Source: a virus
UHGV virus genome: UHGV-0044052
DNA: 11,474 nt
Reading direction: 5' to 3' (one strand)
Below the pieces are notes generated by a model. That model was not told where the DNA came from. It saw nothing but the letters and a program-made list of their open reading frames with translations, and did not search any database. How positions within the stretch are numbered: the first letter of the stretch is position 1; each line of letters begins with the position of its first letter. This document shows positions 507 to 9,807 of the stretch, in pieces. The position numbers and the translations under genes are program-made.

Positions 507-916
507 GGGATTTTTGGTCCACGAGAGTAGTTTAATTGAGCGTGTAACTTCATGATTTAAAATAATGTATATGATTCAACTTTTAAACCGTATAACCAAA
601 CGTATAACTAAAATGATTTGCTGAAAAAATGCACAATTCAGGGTCGGATTTTCCCGGATGTTTAATTTATAAAAACGAAGCTGGTGGATGATCTGCGTGG
701 TGATTTCCACCATTCAGAGCAGGGGCGGTCATCATGCCCATGCCATAACAAAAACCCCATATTCGTGGTTTTTCTGTGTTGTGGCTATTCTGCCGTTGCC
801 GTGCTGGTGGATATTTCCGTTATGGGGATCACCATATCGGCATCATGCCCACCAGCCAGCGCAATTTTGCGCTTTGCTTTAAGTTCAGCAAGTTACCGCG
901 CCGGATTACGCCAATG

Positions 917-1101
917 GCTGTTTCCGAAAGAATCAACGGGTTAGGCCTTAATGGGCTGCGTGGTAATTATCAGCATCCAGAATATGACGGGTTATGTTTC
1001 CGACCTCCTCAATTTGAGGTTCCCGAAAATATCAACGGGTTAGGCTGGTTTCCCCGATGTTCGCCGCTGGCGAATTTCGAAAATATCAACCAGTTACCGC
1101 C
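917..1101 (+). repeat. Three imperfect ~25-bp direct repeats (core GAAA(G/A)(A/T)ATCAAC(G/C)(G/A)GTTA(G/C)(G/C)C)
   Basis: Copies at ~917-943 (ttccgaaagaatcaacgggttaggc), ~1019-1047 (tcccgaaaatatcaacgggttaggc) and ~1073-1101 (ttcgaaaatatcaaccagttaccgc). A CCTCAA-t-TTGAGG palindrome lies at ~1007-1019. No convincing ORF covers them. Confidence 0.6.
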
Positions 1102-1375
1102 GCAACCGCTCCGGCTTCTTCCAGTGGTATGTAATTTTCTCCGTTTCCCGATACAGTGCCACGCGGCGATTGTAGGCCAGCATTTCAAGAACGCGGATCC
1201 GTATGTTGCGCATATCCACATCATTAAGCTGGATACCATCACGGCGCATCACCTCAGCAACAACACGCGCATAATTTTCGGCTGTCACGCTGTCCGGCTG
1301 CGTGGCCTGTTCGTCAGTCTGCTGGCTGATTCCACCAGCACGGCGGATTAATCCCAGTATTTCGGCTTCTGTCAT
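1094..1375 (-). CDS. Hypothetical protein (93 aa) adjacent to cos A
   Basis: ORF of 93 codons with non-repetitive composition, ATG at 1375 with a weak SD. The overlapping plus-strand 191-aa ORF looks like an antisense artefact. No recognisable family. Confidence 0.45.
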   Translation of the reverse strand: MTEAEILGLIRRAGGISQQTDEQATQPDSVTAENYARVVAEVMRRDGIQLNDVDMRNIRIRVLEMLAYNRRVALYRETEKITYHWKKPERLRR

Positions 1376-1408: not shown

Positions 1409-1631
1409 CGGGTCCTTCCTGGAATTATGGACCCGTTACGGGGCGGCGACCTCGCGGTTTTTATCTGTTTATGAAAATTTTTCTGGAAAAAGCATGTCGG
1501 TACTTCTCGAACATAACTATTTGTTTTTAAATAGATACACAATAAAAAGAAACGACACGGTAATCATCTAAAATGGCGATTTATGACGCTTTCATGTCGT
1601 TTCTCAGTTTTGTTCAATAATTGCGCGTCTG
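1409..1631 (+). other. Lambda-type cos site (cos A): cosQ-like, cosN, cosB-like region with R-site-like motifs
   Basis: cgggtccttcctggaattatggacccgttacg | GGGCGGCGACCT (1441-1452) | cgcggtttttatctgtttatgaaaattttt closely matches the lambda cos junction as recalled. Downstream GAAACGACA (1548-1560) and TGTCGTTTCTC (1595-1605) resemble lambda cosB R2/R1 Nu1-binding sites. Confidence 0.8.
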
Positions 1632-2174
1632 TTACTCGCCTTTCTTCTGTAGCAACTTTTCCGGTACGTTTCCGGTTGTTTCTTTCAAGTAATCAGCCAG
1701 TATCTGTGGGAGGTTGTCGGCAACTCTGGCACTGGCATTACAGGCTTTAACCACTTCCCTTTTAAGCCTATCCAGCATGGCGGGGGTAATCTGTGGGAAG
1801 CTCCTTTGCATAGTAAGCGGGAGGCTGTCCATGATTGATGAAATCTGACTCGCCAGCTTTGAAAGCGCGTACAGGCAAAACTCAGTATCAATCACGTCAC
1901 CGCGATCGCGCTCGTTTTTAAGTTCCTGCGCCTCCGCCTGTGCTGTCAGTAATCTGATCCTGACTCGTAAGAGTTCATCATCATCAATATCGCCTTTGTC
2001 GTTTGTAAGCTGGCTAATTGCATTGTTAACCCTATTGTCTATCACGCTGGCAACATCGTAAAACGCCTCACGGCCTTTACGTTCAACGGGAGTCACTCCC
2101 CACTTGTCGAACGCTGTCGCACTTACACGGCAGCTTTTCGCCATGTTTTTTTTGTTCATCAGGTGCGATTTCAT
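1632..2174 (-). CDS. Terminase small subunit, lambda Nu1 family
   Basis: 180-aa product. N-terminus MNKKNMAKSCRVSATAFDKWGVTPV resembles the Nu1 winged-HTH start (VNKKQLADIFGASIRTIQNWQEQGMPV). Central LLTAQAEAQELKNERDRGDVIDTEFCLYALSKLASQISSIMDSLPLTMQRSFP aligns with Nu1 LTRAQADAQELKNARDSAEVVETAFCTFVLSRIAGEIASILDGLPLSVQRRFP. Similar length to Nu1 (181 aa). Comparison is from memory, not a search. Confidence 0.85.
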   Translation of the reverse strand: MKSHLMNKKNMAKSCRVSATAFDKWGVTPVERKGREAFYDVASVIDNRVNNAISQLTNDKGDIDDDELLRVRIRLLTAQAEAQELKNERDRGDVIDTEFCLYALSKLASQISSIMDSLPLTMQRSFPQITPAMLDRLKREVVKACNASARVADNLPQILADYLKETTGNVPEKLLQKKGE

Positions 2175-2350
2175 TAATACACCAACTTAATTACTGCTTC
2201 AGGTTGGTGTATTGTTTGCATCTTTCCCTTTTCATTCATAAAGATAGAGCAAACAACAAAACCACCACCACCCCCCTGAAAAAGCTCATAAATAGCGAAA
2301 AACCGCGAGGTCGCCGCCCCGTAACGGGCCATAATTCCAGGAAGGACCCG
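2175..2350 (-). other. Second cos site (cos B), inverted relative to cos A, directly upstream of the TerS gene
   Basis: Minus strand reads cgggtccttcctggaattatggcccgttacg | GGGCGGCGACCT | cgcggtttttcgctatttatgagc. The cosN complement aggtcgccgccc is at 2308-2319. It forms a ~54-bp near-perfect inverted repeat with 1409-1462 (one indel). The cosB-equivalent region differs from cos A and contains a 9-bp-stem hairpin (tacaccaac / gttggtgta) just before the TerS start. Confidence 0.75.
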
Positions 2351-2376
2351 CAAAAAAGCCGGATTTCTCCGGCCTT
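2350..2376 (-). terminator. Rho-independent terminator after the 137-aa ORF
   Basis: Hairpin GCCGGA-tttc-TCCGGC (2358-2373) followed on the minus strand by a T-run (plus-strand aaaaaa at 2352-2357). Confidence 0.6.
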
Positions 2377-2379
2377 GTC

Positions 2380-2793
2380 TCAGATGGTTTTCAGTATGCG
2401 ATCGATGTCGCCGTCATCGCCTGGGTTTCTGCCATCGTATGCCATGCCAGCTGATACGGTTTGTGGGCTGTGCATGTCCATAAAGTTTTCAAAGGCTGCG
2501 GTAAGCTCTGGTGCAACCTTCGGGCGTTCCTGCTCTATGGTCATGTTCAGGATGTTTTTAGCCGTATCAACATCGATACAAGGCACGTTTGCCATTGCAC
2601 GCAACAGCGGCTGATAGTCTTTATGCTCATGAAGCGCCATAATCGCATCAGCGCGCGGCTTGTCCTGCTCTTCCAGTTTGTTGAGTTGATATACGGCCTC
2701 GTAGGTTGATAAACCTCTGTCAGCCATTGCCCGCGCTTCGGCTTTAAATTTACTCGCCAGCGGTAGCGCCATGATGCTTTCATTCGTTGCCAT
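2380..2793 (-). CDS. Hypothetical protein (137 aa) in the head module
   Basis: ORF with a strong SD (GGGGGA) 4-5 nt upstream of the ATG at 2793, immediately downstream of the decoration gene. No recognisable family. Confidence 0.6.
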   Translation of the reverse strand: MATNESIMALPLASKFKAEARAMADRGLSTYEAVYQLNKLEEQDKPRADAIMALHEHKDYQPLLRAMANVPCIDVDTAKNILNMTIEQERPKVAPELTAAFENFMDMHSPQTVSAGMAYDGRNPGDDGDIDRILKTI

Positions 2794-3120: not shown

Positions 3121-4176
3121 TTAAGCAATTTTGACGGTAACAAATTTGCGAATATCTGCCGGAACCGGCTGCGGTGCGCTGTGCGTCTGCACGTACTCAA
3201 TCGCCGGATCGCCGTCCTCAATCCAGTTTTTCGGGTAGTACATGTTTTGCGTTGCGCCTGTTCTTACCGCTTCCTGATCCATAATCGCACCATAGGCCAC
3301 CAGCCCTTTGTTGTTGGTGTTGCCCAGGACCAGCAAATCAGGATCAAGGAAATATTTTTCTGTGCCGTCGCTGTCAGTGTATTTGCCGGAATAGACGATA
3401 AGGGCAATATCGCCCAGATAGCCTTTAAAGCTCACCACTTCGCCCAGGTTTTTACAGGCCAGCTCTGCGGCGGACTCTGAACCACGGGAAAGATCGTACA
3501 GCTCACGGAATTTTTTAAAGCTGCGTAACGTTCGCCATACCTCAACGCCCATAATCATGACGTTTGCGGGGCAACCAGCCTGATCGGCGTATAGTTCGAT
3601 ATCATAGATTGGATCGTGGGTTTCTTTGTCCTGCTCTGACCATTTTTTCCCGTCGGCCTGCTCTATGATGTTTTTTTCCGGTATCTTCCAGTCGATTTCA
3701 TAGCGCTCTATGCCTTCGCCCTCAATGATGTTTTTTCCGGTCGTTACCGCATTTACCGCCAGCCATTCCACGCGCGCTTTTATGGCGTTTATCTGGCGGC
3801 GCATATTGCCAGTAATCAGGCGCATACGGCGATAGGTAGGGTCGTTAAGCTGTGCCGGATCTTCTCCAGCCATGCGCATGATGGTTTTCGTTGGATCGAT
3901 TTCGTGCTTTGGCTTCATGTAGCCAGGTTTAATCGTGCTGGTTTCGTACCCTTTATCGCGCTGAACCTGGCTACCCACCATAGGCGAACAAAACGCCGAC
4001 ATGGTGACTTCTTCAATGTCCAGGGTATCCAGCATGATGTTTTGCGTGTTGAATGTCGCCACGTTCGGGAAAAACAGCGCGGTAAACAGCGGACTAAATT
4101 TAAATTCCGCAATATCCTCGCGATTCAGGTACGCGAAAAGCTGGTGTGTGTTAAGTGCCATTGCTTTGACTGCCAT
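3121..4176 (-). CDS. Major capsid protein, lambda gpE-like (HK97 fold)
   Basis: 351-aa product with conserved blocks shared with lambda gpE along its length: EFKFSPLFTALFF / KFKFDPLFLRLFF, KPGYMKPKHEIDP / TPGYVKPKHEVNP, DPTYRRMRLI / DPAYRRRRII, GDIALIVYSGKY / GDVAIVVYSGQY, YYPKNWIEDGDPA / RYPKNWVTTGDPA, SAP near the C-terminus. Confidence 0.9.
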   Translation of the reverse strand: MAVKAMALNTHQLFAYLNREDIAEFKFSPLFTALFFPNVATFNTQNIMLDTLDIEEVTMSAFCSPMVGSQVQRDKGYETSTIKPGYMKPKHEIDPTKTIMRMAGEDPAQLNDPTYRRMRLITGNMRRQINAIKARVEWLAVNAVTTGKNIIEGEGIERYEIDWKIPEKNIIEQADGKKWSEQDKETHDPIYDIELYADQAGCPANVMIMGVEVWRTLRSFKKFRELYDLSRGSESAAELACKNLGEVVSFKGYLGDIALIVYSGKYTDSDGTEKYFLDPDLLVLGNTNNKGLVAYGAIMDQEAVRTGATQNMYYPKNWIEDGDPAIEYVQTHSAPQPVPADIRKFVTVKIA

Positions 4177-4599: not shown

Positions 4600-4760
4600 T
4601 GTCGAACGAAAATTAACCACAACCATCATCTTTTTTGCATCAAAACAATTAAAAACAATAAATTACGCTCATGATGATGATGACGATAAAATCACAAAAA
4701 TGCGCTTTTTTCCGCGCCTCCCGCCCCGTGTTCAGGCCCACCCCGCCAGGAGGACCCGTA
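4600..4760 (-). other. Degenerate cos-like relic (third copy)
   Basis: On the minus strand, ...acgggtcctcctggcgggg...acggggcgggaggcgcgg resembles cosQ-cosN but the cosN core is disrupted (GGGGCGG-GAGG-CGCGG versus GGGGCGGCGACCTCGCGG). Downstream, atcgtcatcatcatcatgagcgtaatttattgtttttaattgtttt resembles the lambda cosB I1 region (tcgtcataacttaatgtttttatttaaaat). Confidence 0.5.
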
Positions 4761-5782: not shown

Positions 5783-7537
5783 TTATAAAAACGCGTCGCA
5801 ATCGTCTGTTGTTATTGCGTTAGTCTGCGTTACTCCTTTAACTTTCCGCGTAATATATTCATGTCCGTAAACTTTCGCGGCTGGCTTCATAGCCTTGCCA
5901 AAGTCATTTACGTTTAGCGGTTTGCTCCTGCCTGCGTACGCCATAAACGCCAGATAGACGCGGTAAAGGCTGTTTCTGGTCGTGTACTTCACTGAATCGC
6001 CACCGCCGCCCATCATCAGGCCGCGTGCTTCCTCCAGAAAATTCAGGAACTGGCAAAACTCAATAACCGGATCCGTCTGTTGCTTTATTGCCAGTGCTTC
6101 ATCACCGTCACGCTGTTCAATGAGTAAAGCCCGTGCCTTTTCAGGGTCGGCAAAGTTCGCCAGCAAGCGGCGGATAATGACAGGGATTTCAGCCGCGATC
6201 TTTTCCGGTAGCTCCCTGTCTTTTTCTGCCTCGCTTACGATGTTATCGAACCGGAATATCACCCGACGACGTGCCACACCTCCGGCCCGTTCGGTGAATA
6301 TCATCGGATTGTTATTGGTTGCCAGCACCACCGCCCTGATTACCGCCGTAAAACGCTTTTCATATTTCGGGTTAATTTCCACGGGGTCGCCGCCCGTGAT
6401 TTTCTTGATGCCCGTTCCTTCGCCTGTATATTTCGGCTGGTCTGCCAGGACGATAAGACGACTCCCGACAACCTGCGCACGCCCACCAGCATCATCAAGC
6501 GATGTCATTTCAGCGCTTACCGTGTTTTGTTTCCCTGCCAGAAGGCTGGCTATGTGTGTGAATGTACTTTTACCGCTCCCGCCGTCTCCGGTGGCCTCAA
6601 TAAACATCTGCCAGTCGTACCGGTTCGCCATAATCATGTACAGCGCGGCACATATACGCATCATCTTGCGCGGGTCTTTTCCGGCTGCGTGCTCAAGCCA
6701 TTTATGAAAGTTTGGCGCGTTATCGCGGATGTTCTCCCCTGGTGCTGGTGGCGTGTACTCAATGCCGTTGTGCGTGGTGATCCAGTTCTCCGGCGTGTGC
6801 GGGGAAAATTCCCCCGTTTTCAGGTCAAGCGCACCATTGGCGAACGGCAGCAAATCGCCGGACGGCTCGCCCATTGGTTCGGCAATAACTTTTAACGCTT
6901 CCACGGCGTTATTGATTACGCGCTTGCTGAAAGTGGCCCTGTGCTCTGAATAGATCGCCACCATTTCGCGGCTAAGTTCCATTGTGCTGACCGGACACCA
7001 TACCCCGCCGCGCCATACGTGAACGATTTCACTTTCAGGATGTACGCAAACGCCATCAAAGCGATCGGCAAGCAGCTGCGCGCGCTCACTGTCCGCCATC
7101 TGCGAAAGTTGCGCCTTTTGCTTTACCGGAAGCTCAATGACCAGACCATCAGAAAGATTCTGGCGCTCACGGGCCAGATATTCGCGCCAGTTCTCCACCT
7201 TCTGACCGTGCATACCATCAGGGTAAAAATTTGCATCCTGTACGCCTGCCGCCGCCAGCTTCTGACCAATCGCCTTTATCATTACTGGCGCAAGATATCC
7301 GGCCCTGAATATGCGCACGGATTTTCTGCCTTCCGGCACAATTTGCAGCTTATCCAGTTCTGATAACTGCTGCTCCCCAAGCCACACAGGAGGCTCATTA
7401 TCTCCGGCCATACGCGCATCATGTTCCTGCCATTGTTTCGCGTGTGCCCAGGCATCACTACCCGCAAAAATAATGACTTCTGTTCCTTTGTGTTTTATGC
7501 CGCGTGACTGCTGTTTTACGTTCGGTGCCAGTTTCAT
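5783..7537 (-). CDS. Replication primase/helicase (P4 alpha / D5-like, SF3 helicase domain)
   Basis: 584-aa product with Walker A GDGGSGKST in the central region and a C-terminal region plausibly DNA-binding. SD AGGGGT upstream. Start overlaps the preceding ORF stop (ATGA). Domain assignment is from motifs only. Confidence 0.8.
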   Translation of the reverse strand: MKLAPNVKQQSRGIKHKGTEVIIFAGSDAWAHAKQWQEHDARMAGDNEPPVWLGEQQLSELDKLQIVPEGRKSVRIFRAGYLAPVMIKAIGQKLAAAGVQDANFYPDGMHGQKVENWREYLARERQNLSDGLVIELPVKQKAQLSQMADSERAQLLADRFDGVCVHPESEIVHVWRGGVWCPVSTMELSREMVAIYSEHRATFSKRVINNAVEALKVIAEPMGEPSGDLLPFANGALDLKTGEFSPHTPENWITTHNGIEYTPPAPGENIRDNAPNFHKWLEHAAGKDPRKMMRICAALYMIMANRYDWQMFIEATGDGGSGKSTFTHIASLLAGKQNTVSAEMTSLDDAGGRAQVVGSRLIVLADQPKYTGEGTGIKKITGGDPVEINPKYEKRFTAVIRAVVLATNNNPMIFTERAGGVARRRVIFRFDNIVSEAEKDRELPEKIAAEIPVIIRRLLANFADPEKARALLIEQRDGDEALAIKQQTDPVIEFCQFLNFLEEARGLMMGGGGDSVKYTTRNSLYRVYLAFMAYAGRSKPLNVNDFGKAMKPAAKVYGHEYITRKVKGVTQTNAITTDDCDAFL

Positions 7538-8509: not shown

Positions 8510-8729
8510 GTACCCCTCCGCATTTTTTTTCGTTAGAAATAAGCGTTCTTCTTTCCTGTTCATCGCTCAGGAATACGCAGACCTCACCGCTAAGGCGTTT
8601 AAGTAAGCCGATGATTGCCCCTGATTCGCTGTCGGTCATCATGCCAGGGTAATCCTCTGCCAGTGCGCAAATAACTTCGATTTGGTGGGCGCGTTCTGCT
8701 GCCTGTTGTAGTGTGATTTCCTGGCTCAT
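8499..8729 (-). CDS. Hypothetical small acidic protein (76 aa), early operon gene 2
   Basis: ATG at 8729 overlaps the stop of gene 1 (ATGA). Non-repetitive composition. Confidence 0.5.
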   Translation of the reverse strand: MSQEITLQQAAERAHQIEVICALAEDYPGMMTDSESGAIIGLLKRLSGEVCVFLSDEQERRTLISNEKKCGGVHVQ

Positions 8730-8926
8730 AAGCCTACCCCCTGACGAATACGGGCAGCAAATACCATCACGCAGCCAGCCGGAGATTGCTGACGCGCTTC
8801 CTGTTCGCTGGTGGCCTCGATGGTAATCACGCGCGGTTGTGCCGTGCTCAGGGCGATAAAACGCCAGATGTATTTATTCAGGTTGTACGAGTCCCGCCCT
8901 TGCGGGTGTATGGTATAATTTCTCAT
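8726..8926 (-). CDS. Hypothetical protein (66 aa), first gene of the early operon
   Basis: ATG at 8926 with SD GAGG ~6 nt upstream. Corresponds to the 3' end of the 355-aa ORF in the track, whose 5' part is low-complexity and antisense to the RHH gene and is not used. Confidence 0.45.
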   Translation of the reverse strand: MRNYTIHPQGRDSYNLNKYIWRFIALSTAQPRVITIEATSEQEARQQSPAGCVMVFAARIRQGVGL

Positions 8927-9122
8927 AGCTGCCTCGATAATCTTGCTATCGTTGGTGGTTAGAAGCCCCGTTACTGCTCCTACAGTGCGGGGTTTCGTCG
9001 TTTCTGCACCTTGCATTAACAAGGTGTAAGTAACTTTATTTATAGGTGGCTTACATGTCAATGCTTTTATGTAAGACTTTTTATGTGTATATTGTCTTAC
9101 ACTTTCATTGAGAGGATTACAG
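8927..9122. promoter_or_regulatory. Divergent promoter/operator region (genetic switch)
   Basis: Four TGTAAG / CTTACA half-sites arranged as two inverted pairs (9025-9030 / 9050-9055 and 9070-9075 / 9096-9101; the second is GTAAGAC-N16-GTCTTAC). Palindrome CCTTG-cattaa-CAAGG at 9009-9024. Candidate leftward promoter TTGACA (plus 9057-9062) - 18 bp - TAAAGT (plus 9033-9038). Candidate rightward -10 TATATT at 9088-9093. Confidence 0.6.
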
Positions 9123-9428
9123 ATGGCTACAGGTTCAAAAAACGCAAAATCACAATCACTGACAGCTCGGATCCCGCATGATGTTATTGAAGGCATGGAA
9201 TCCGTAAAACTGGACGGTGAAAGCAACGCCGGATTCATAGTAACCGCCATGCGCGGTGAAATCGCCCGCCGCCAGGCAGAAGGAAGCGGAGAAAACCCCC
9301 TGATTTCTTCGCACGATGCACTGGCGCAGGTGGAAAAACTCGGAATCAAAGCCGCCGAGGAGATCGGGCAGCTCGTCACTGTCGCACGTGAAGAACTCCA
9401 GCGCCGCAAGACCAAAGAACCAGAGTAA
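9123..9428 (+). CDS. Ribbon-helix-helix (CopG/Arc-like) DNA-binding protein, putative island repressor
   Basis: ATG at 9123 with SD GAGAGGA. N-terminal SLTARIPHDVIEGMESVKLDGESNAGFIVTAMRGEIARR fits a beta-strand / helix / helix RHH pattern. Divergent from the early operon across the operator region. Confidence 0.6.
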   Translation: MATGSKNAKSQSLTARIPHDVIEGMESVKLDGESNAGFIVTAMRGEIARRQAEGSGENPLISSHDALAQVEKLGIKAAEEIGQLVTVAREELQRRKTKEPE

Positions 9429-9485
9429 TCACCATCAGCGCCGTGGTGTAAGGTATTACGGCGCATTGCTATGCAGGACAACACA

Positions 9486-9659
9486 ATGACCGATAAAGAA
9501 TTGACCAAAACATTATCACCGGCACGGAAAAGACGGCGCAGAAAGATAGAGCATGAATCAGAAAGATTCGCGCCATGTGCTTTTGCCCTTGAGCAATTCC
9601 TTAAAGAATACAGGGAAAAGCGCTCATTGCAGGTATGGCAACGAACTGAACCAGACTGA
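9486..9659 (+). CDS. Hypothetical small basic protein (58 aa)
   Basis: ATG at 9486 with AGGA 8 nt upstream. Contains an RKRRRRK basic patch. Alternative start at 9471 as in the ORF track. Confidence 0.4.
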   Translation: MTDKELTKTLSPARKRRRRKIEHESERFAPCAFALEQFLKEYREKRSLQVWQRTEPD

Positions 9660-9753
9660 TTGCATTGCCCACCAGCCTGATAGCGGCTATCATCCCCGTG
9701 CTTATGTTTGGGATCATATACACATAAGGCGCAGCGGGTTAATTGTTCAGAAA

Positions 9754-9781
9754 GGCGGCTCCATATCGGGGCCGCTTTTTT
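9754..9781 (+). terminator. Rho-independent terminator between convergent rightward genes and alpA
   Basis: Stem GCGGC / GCCGC (9755-9759 / 9771-9775) with an ~11-nt loop, followed by tttttt (9776-9781). Confidence 0.55.
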
Positions 9782-9807
9782 CGTGTTTGTCATATCTGTG
9801 ATACCCG

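Follow-up and report, generated by a model that had tools for sequence, protein, structure and literature searches.

Two facing cos sites that bracket a small-terminase gene (terS) were found in the 11,474-nt stretch of DNA analysed here (further called the window), which is the packaging end of the cos-type phage-inducible chromosomal island (PICI) EcCIATCC25922. Rather probably, the pair combines one private and one helper-type packaging signal, which together with terS form a cassette recombining at the conserved cos cores. The arrangement had been described in the initial annotation as non-standard, and this is true of phages; however, the facing-cos layout is not new, as it was already published for the island EcCICFT073, with the two sites termed cos1 and cos2. 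What is new here is that cos A (in the cos2 position) has the full make-up of a phage cos and occurs in at least four alleles, that cos B (in the cos1 position) and TerS appear N15-like, that the region behaves as a module, and that a third cos region is present.

E. coli Nissle 1917, ATCC 25922 and further strains share the surrounding 1.9 kb at 100% identity. EcCIATCC25922 is catalogued as a PICI at CP009072.1:106749-118031 (Fillol-Salom et al., 2018, PMC6092414 supplementary table), and the coordinates of the window agree with this entry. The att repeat at the island end (574-600, minus strand) matches the EcCIATCC25922 att given in the same supplementary table; positions 1 to about 573, outside the att repeat, are chromosomal flank, and in Nissle 1917 the island adjoins tRNA-Pro and yejM. 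The island encodes an integrase, a helix-turn-helix regulator, a D5-type primase, SSB, a lambda E-like capsid and a D-like decoration protein, a 137-aa protein, TerS and a 93-aa protein. With its size of ~11 kb, its own att, integrase, regulator and primase it has the features of Gram-negative cos PICIs, and its virion genes are limited to the capsid and decoration homologues, with no full virion module. The 93-aa gene (1094-1375, minus strand; PHROG 1561, 1e-55) forms the conserved outer flank of the cassette and is found on the same side in EcCICFT073 and in the related loci L006, L007 and L091. The conserved inner flank is the 137-aa gene (2380-2793, minus strand; PHROG 1999, 4e-65), whose side is unchanged in every related island; a search of genome contigs with this protein found no relative, and relatives were sampled from IMG/VR instead. 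The 137-aa protein has a second match, to the C-terminal end of models for head maturation proteases (phrog_53 positions 494-567, 3e-9), and it could be a scaffold-like partner of the capsid and decoration homologues. Between the 137-aa gene and cos B there is a terminator-like hairpin with a T run (2352-2373, minus strand; GCCGGAGAAATCCGGC-TTTTTT), which folds at -18.9 kcal/mol (z = -2.0); it was not listed by the consensus scan, though it is visible in both the sequence and the fold. Two further observations concern the island outside the cassette. Three direct copies of CGAAA(A/G)(T/A)ATCAAC(G/C)(G/A)GTTA, spaced by 99 and 54 nt, are situated at 920-1096 (plus strand), in the stretch that separates the 93-aa gene from the end of the island. 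The 355-aa ORF at 8726-9793 (minus strand) is unannotated in RefSeq, where several small genes (Icd-like, YlcI/YnfO family) are placed instead, and it is probably spurious.

The two facing lambda-type cos cores reported around terS were upheld by alignment with lambda, phage 21 and PhiR5_1, in which both copies could be aligned through cosQ, cosN and I2. The repeat, initially given as a segment of ~54 bp, is real, but its true arms are longer, ~73 nt each (1409-1481, plus strand, and 2279-2350, minus strand), and differ by one 1-nt indel and few mismatches. The cosN sequence GGGCGGCGACCT is exact in both arms (1441-1452, plus strand, and 2308-2319, minus strand); 0.01 copies are expected by chance, and two copies were obtained in 0 of 200 shuffles of the window. 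In both cos A and cos B, cosQ (CGGGTCC...) is placed ~30 nt upstream of cosN, and I2 follows downstream. Since the same layout is shared by 488 of 5,426 complete E. coli genomes (at least 80% of the 1.9-kb query), an assembly accident is excluded, and the shuffles together with the complete-genome matches rule out both chance and assembly artefact as the origin of the repeat. A near-cosN sequence, GGGCGGCGACCC at 6384-6395, is not a cos, being located inside the primase ORF without cosQ or I2. The spacer that includes cosQ (1409-1440 and 2320-2350 in the window) occurs, across the window and IMG/VR loci, in two types, X (CCTTCCTGGAATTATGG) and Y (CCTTTCCGGCATATGGA). The terS-side arm is of type Y and the other arm of type X in 23 of 30 double-cos islands; both arms are of type X in the window and in 5 of the 30, a state that makes the repeat longer and resembles gene conversion between the arms.

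Cos A (1409-1605, plus strand), which packages towards higher coordinates, is composed of cosQ (1409-1419), cosN (1441-1452), I2 (1470-1484), R3 (1490-1505), I1 (1512-1526), R2 (1547-1562) and R1 (1590-1605), all on the plus strand. The R3, I1, R2 and R1 elements are offset from cosN by +49, +71, +106 and +149, respectively, i.e., exactly as annotated for phage 21 in M81255, and R2 is inverted with respect to R3 and R1. From cosN to position 1631 the site is 76% identical to both phage 21 (over 184 nt) and PhiR5_1 (over 185 nt). The core of its R boxes is CATGTCG, whereas that of lambda is CGTTTCC; the R-site motifs noticed in the initial annotation are thus present, but they belong to the phage 21/PhiR5_1 class and not, as was proposed, to that of lambda. 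As had been stated, cos A reaches the 3′ end of terS, which converges on it: R1 ends at 1605, and the terS stop codon is at 1632-1634.

The terS gene (1632-2174, minus strand) encodes a 180-aa protein of the Nu1 family. Its score against Pfam PF07471 (Phage_Nu1) is 83 bits, above the cut-off of 30, and its match to PHROG 57, terminase small subunit, has a value of 3e-53 and spans positions 8-193 of 199. It is 33-46% identical, over about 90% of its length, to TerS of phage 21, PhiR5_1 and N15, and among 50,697 phage records there was no phage TerS of more than 60% identity to it. The characteristics of Nu1-family small terminases extend to its C-terminal region, which in lambda binds the large terminase; this region is missing from Rpp proteins (PMC9026076). 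The assignment of the gene as an Rpp, which would be expected to have about 140-155 aa, an RT..R.W recognition helix and homology to RppA, RppB or RppC, was rejected: the protein has 180 aa, BLASTP against RppA gave E = 1.4, and a PDB sequence search with TerS returned nothing meaningful and no RppC match. Residues 1-58, the DNA-binding domain, are 58% identical to N15 gp1, while residues 59-110 and 111-180 are, respectively, 67% and 56% identical to PhiR5_1 Nu1. Judged by these identities, TerS is a mosaic that joins an N15-like DNA-binding domain to a PhiR5_1-like middle and C-terminal, presumably TerL-binding, part. The promoter scan gave no sigma-70-like promoter inside the cassette.

Cos B (2175-2350, minus strand) packages towards lower coordinates and contains, on the minus strand, cosQ (2340-2350), cosN (2308-2319), an I2-like variant TATGAGCTTTTTCAG (2276-2290), a putative single R3 GGTGGTGGTGGTTTTGTTGTTTGC (2249-2272) and, directly before the terS ATG, a 10-bp inverted repeat (2177-2212). 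The alignment bore out that it lies upstream of the terS start and has a different cosB region. Matches to phage records cover its first 57 nt only (cosN to I2), and beyond I2 these records gave no match; this part is also unrelated to the cos A region and contains no repeated boxes, no R2 and no R1, so that the R3-I1-R2-R1 order is absent. At the R3 position cos B and phage N15 have GGTT(TT)GTTGTTT in common, and the cosB of N15 consists of a single R3 (Feiss laboratory, reviewed in PMC9026076). These similarities suggest that the island TerS binds the R3-like stretch of cos B. The cosB part of cos B is kept across 80 IMG/VR islands with this TerS, even where cosN is different. In the loci L051-L063, L072, L082 and L087 the same TerS/cosB module is accompanied by other cosN sequences (GGGCGGAAGGCG, GGGCGTCAGGCG, GGGCGGCAGACG, GGGCGGCTGACG) ~145 nt upstream of terS, several of these loci being within contigs of 33-60 kb. 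It thus seems that exchange of the cutting site is independent of exchange of the recognition site. A separate similarity was seen between GGTGGTGGTGG of cos B (2249-2262, minus strand) and ACCACCACCAC of EcCICFT073 cos1 (2612-2621 of locus L005), the stretch proposed as the Rpp-bound R3: the two are reverse complements at nearly equal distance from cosN, and the DNA-binding proteins of the two islands are unrelated.

The cosB of cos A, terS and the cosB of cos B form a specificity cassette (1488-2277) that is exchanged and inverted as a unit. The homology of about 95% between the window and EcCICFT073 ends at 1487 and resumes at 2278, with an unrelated interior, hence the stretch between the cos cores is a replaced module; the strain CFT073 carries the rppA-type island and, in addition, a match to the terS-type region. 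The search for both orientations in related genomes was successful for the terS type as well as the rppA type, the flipped cassette being present in 5 of 493 complete genomes with the former and in 15 of 83 with the latter (68 native), counted as genomes and not as independent events, in collections that are rich in clonal strains. The flipped-terS query, built of the 93-aa flank and the cos core joined to the cos B interior and terS, was matched end to end in five genomes, all at about 91-92% identity; the listed close relatives of the window have the native orientation. In L006 and L007 terS is on the strand opposite to both flanks, and the segment corresponding to 1409-2350 of the window is reversed between collinear flanks (95.7% identity in L007). 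Since these two loci differ in att site and in second-cos allele, at least two inversion events must have taken place. In L091 the rppA cassette is reversed at 99.4% identity, and its RppA and 93-aa proteins are the same as in CFT073. For L006 and L007 the crossovers can be placed in a core, cosN included, that is no longer than 31 bp, and the arms of L091 are identical over 47 nt; such crossovers are compatible both with recombination over short homology and with a cut at cosN followed by re-joining. There is no invertase in or beside the cassette, the only recombinase being the island integrase 8 kb away, so a dedicated recombinase next to the repeats, as in programmed inversion systems, is lacking.

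The second of the two routes for the crossovers can be outlined from the positions of the sites. Because both cosB sides lie inside the pair, a double cut at both cosN would release a 0.9-kb fragment with like ends, each carrying a 5′-GGGCGGCGACCT overhang, and would leave an island backbone with two 5′-AGGTCGCCGCCC ends. Neither the fragment nor the backbone could close on itself, and the fragment could re-anneal either way round to this backbone or to that of another double-cos island sharing the cell. That helper terminase in this manner flips or shuffles packaging-specificity cassettes among satellites, without homologous recombination, is an unlikely possibility.

The helper-type half of the cassette is variable, as was seen in a set of 29 IMG/VR islands with two cos sites together with EcCICFT073, L006 and L007. 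At least four alleles of the second cos were distinguished, each with one common core in all three of its R boxes, while I2 and the junction with terS are constant. Type 1, that of the window, has the core CATGTCG and matches the PhiR5_1 cosB; type 2 (L010, L006) has CAGATCC and matches the SerU-LTIIb cosB; type 3 (L039) has C(G/A)TGTCGG, i.e., CGTGTCGG in R3 and CATGTCGG in R1, and matches the phage 21 cosB; for type 4 (cos2 of EcCICFT073), with the core CATGTCCGG, no matching phage cosB was identified. Three of the four alleles thus correspond to phage classes. Among 65 informative IMG/VR islands the second cos is present in 29, absent from 31 and reduced in five to a remnant of cosQ and truncated cosN only; with a complete copy missing from about half of the islands that encode this TerS, it is dispensable. 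In L049, L066-L068, L070 and L073 the sequence CCGCCGCCCCGTAACGGGCC... directly follows the terS stop, the deletion having taken the entire second-cos cosB with its endpoint inside cosN. Co-variation of TerS sequence with the second-cos allele, which would be a sign of one shared helper, was absent from this set: L010 encodes a TerS identical to that of the window, yet its second cos is of type 2, and since identical TerS proteins occur with type 1 and type 2 alleles, the two halves do not co-vary.

Functional data are available for the sister island. The EcCICFT073 cosN lies at 2559 (plus strand) of L005, upstream of a 144-aa gene, and again, inverted, at 3309 (minus strand), between that gene and the 93-aa gene; the supplement sequences of PMC6092414 identify the upstream site as cos1 and the inverted one as cos2, and the 144-aa protein has R21, T22, T23, R25, W27 and K29, as described for RppA. 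Each cloned site, cos1 or cos2, supported plasmid transfer by lambda and phi80, and island transfer was lowered by deletion of cos1, increased by deletion of cos2 and abolished by the double deletion (PMC6092414, PMC6739421); cos1 was the site that transfer needed, and cos2 could be spared. Of the two cosB regions, that of cos1 alone responds to RppA; this protein acts together with helper TerS in a complex, which is the only reader of cos1, and cos2 also works as a cos (PMC6092414, PMC6739421). Terminase cutting of both sites is supported by genetics, and the authors found a phage cosB in neither of them (PMC6092414, PMC6739421). The published cos2 tests used lambda and phi80 as the only helpers (PMC6092414), whereas the resident prophage of CFT073 has a phage 21-type cos and TerS (PMC9026076; also compared here), and the analysis of Murialdo and Feiss covered cos1 only (PMC9026076). 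In the literature on these islands we found no mention of relative cos orientation or of inversion.

How might the two sites of the window work together? With cosQ, cosN and I2 kept in both, the helper large terminase would be able to nick either. The N15-like single-R3 region of cos B would be read by the island's own TerS, whose PhiR5_1-like C-terminal part should recruit the helper large terminase directly, while the R3-I1-R2-R1 set of cos A should be read by the TerS of a matching helper. In lambda, packaging sets out from cosN in the direction of cosB and stops when the next cos of like orientation is reached. As both cosB regions are inside the pair, the sites direct packaging in opposite directions, each through terS first, and on concatemers either of them could start packaging of the whole island unit. 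Each site would, however, lie within the first 0.9 kb of the other's path, where a cut at one would abort packaging from the other; cos A and cos B are therefore expected to compete in cis, and such competition would explain the higher transfer of EcCICFT073 after cos2 deletion with non-cognate helpers. The cassette itself would be a module that is swapped (rppA or terS), exchanges its helper-type half among alleles, is lost from many islands and is occasionally inverted. The interpretation given in the initial annotation holds in part, and the two terminase specificities are the best supported of the ideas it offered: cos A matches helper cosB classes and cos B pairs with the N15-like TerS.

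Some of the observations do not sit easily with one private and one helper-type signal: a complete second cos is missing from about half of the islands with this TerS (31 without any and 5 with a remnant, of 65), cos2 of EcCICFT073 lowered transfer with both helpers tested, TerS and second-cos alleles do not co-vary, and the R boxes could be phage imports that the island may not use. The same data may be read differently, with cos A as a phage cos that was captured head-to-head next to terS, is neutral or mildly harmful, has been kept by linkage and is now being lost. The absence of the second cos from 31 of 65 related islands and its reduction to cosQ and truncated cosN in five more, as well as the increased EcCICFT073 transfer upon cos2 deletion, speak for such a relic, but where the site is present every cos A subsite is intact at the exact phage spacing, each of the four alleles retains three matching R boxes, and cos2 alone must support some EcCICFT073 transfer, since it is only the double deletion that abolishes it. 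We consider this history possible, though distinctly improbable. It has also to be weighed whether cos A on the amplified island soaks up helper TerS and terminase and so lowers phage yield, the island itself using cos B and its own TerS. The helper-class R boxes of cos A would suit this role, and an island TerS that keeps the large-terminase-binding C-terminal region may not need helper TerS (PMC9026076); nevertheless, interference by EcCICFT073 was mapped in published work to rppA alone, and a site that is both cut and packaged is more than a decoy, which makes titration of the helper, the decoy role raised by the initial annotation, an unsupported and doubtful function for cos A.

The initial annotation also raised the possibility of an invertible cassette, and both orientations do exist in related genomes, of the terS type and of the rppA type, as a programmed switch that toggles terS expression or packaging direction would require. 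Yet the flipped forms are rare and belong to diverged lineages: the listed close relatives are all native, and identity to the flipped-junction query is no more than about 91-92% in each of the five flipped terS copies. Moreover, no invertase gene is found in or beside the cassette, and a flip would leave the cos sites still facing and the packaging logic unchanged. Native close relatives, diverged flipped copies and the lack of a nearby invertase taken together, the inversions fit rare recombination at the cos cores rather than a switch, for which we see hardly any likelihood. The pairing of a private with a helper-type signal, in a cassette that recombines at the conserved cores, is accordingly the reading retained here.

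A third complete cos-like region, of the Stx-phage type and with a different cosN, is located at 4617-4758 (minus strand) and comprises cosQ (4746-4758), cosN GGGCGGGAGGCG (4715-4726) and CATCATC/GATGATG boxes (4670-4685 and 4617-4632), all on the minus strand. It is 92.7% identical over about 120 nt to Stx2 phages and collinear with the lambda cos; in Stx2 phages its counterpart is directly upstream of terS, with the endopeptidase gene on the other side. In the window the region sits in a gap of 415 nt that follows the SSB gene and has a hairpin and T run of its own ahead of it. EcCICFT073 has perC in place of the third cos, which is carried by 5 of 75 IMG/VR relatives.

The authors who described the E. 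coli PICIs asked in print why some of these islands carry two different cos sites, and the present comparison offers a testable answer. If confirmed, it would mean that satellites gain access to more helpers by accumulating packaging signals and that packaging specificity passes from one satellite to another with the cos-bounded cassette as the unit. It also bears on predicting which phages mobilise such islands and on the strains that carry them, including Nissle 1917, a probiotic chassis, and ATCC 25922, a reference strain.

Each of the known systems resembles the island in part. With the cos of phage 21 and PhiR5_1, cos A shares cosQ, cosN, I2, R3, I1, R2 and R1 at identical offsets, its R2 and R1 being nearer to PhiR5_1 than to phage 21, but no terminase gene follows the R1 of cos A, and the 3′ end of the convergent terS is 27 nt away instead. 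N15 is approached by the TerS DNA-binding domain (58% identical to gp1) and by cos B, which has a single R3-like element and a motif in common with it; in contrast, the cosN of cos B is of the lambda type and not the N15 variant, and its R3 is a putative one. EcCICFT073 belongs to the same island family, with flanks about 95% identical, the same lambda-type cosQ and cosN, and the same order of capsid, decoration, 137-aa gene, terminator-like hairpin, cos, DNA-recognition gene, inverted cos and 93-aa gene. It differs in the slot between the sites, where it encodes the 144-aa RppA and the window the 180-aa Nu1-family TerS (E = 1.4), and in both cosB regions, which are unrelated to those of the window, whose cos A is plainly of the phage-type R3-I1-R2-R1 order. 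The staphylococcal SaPIs likewise encode a small terminase of their own, TerS, by which the helper large terminase is diverted to the packaging site of the satellite (PMC6092414), although SaPIs package by the pac headful mode and have no cos sites, and their TerS belongs to an unrelated family.
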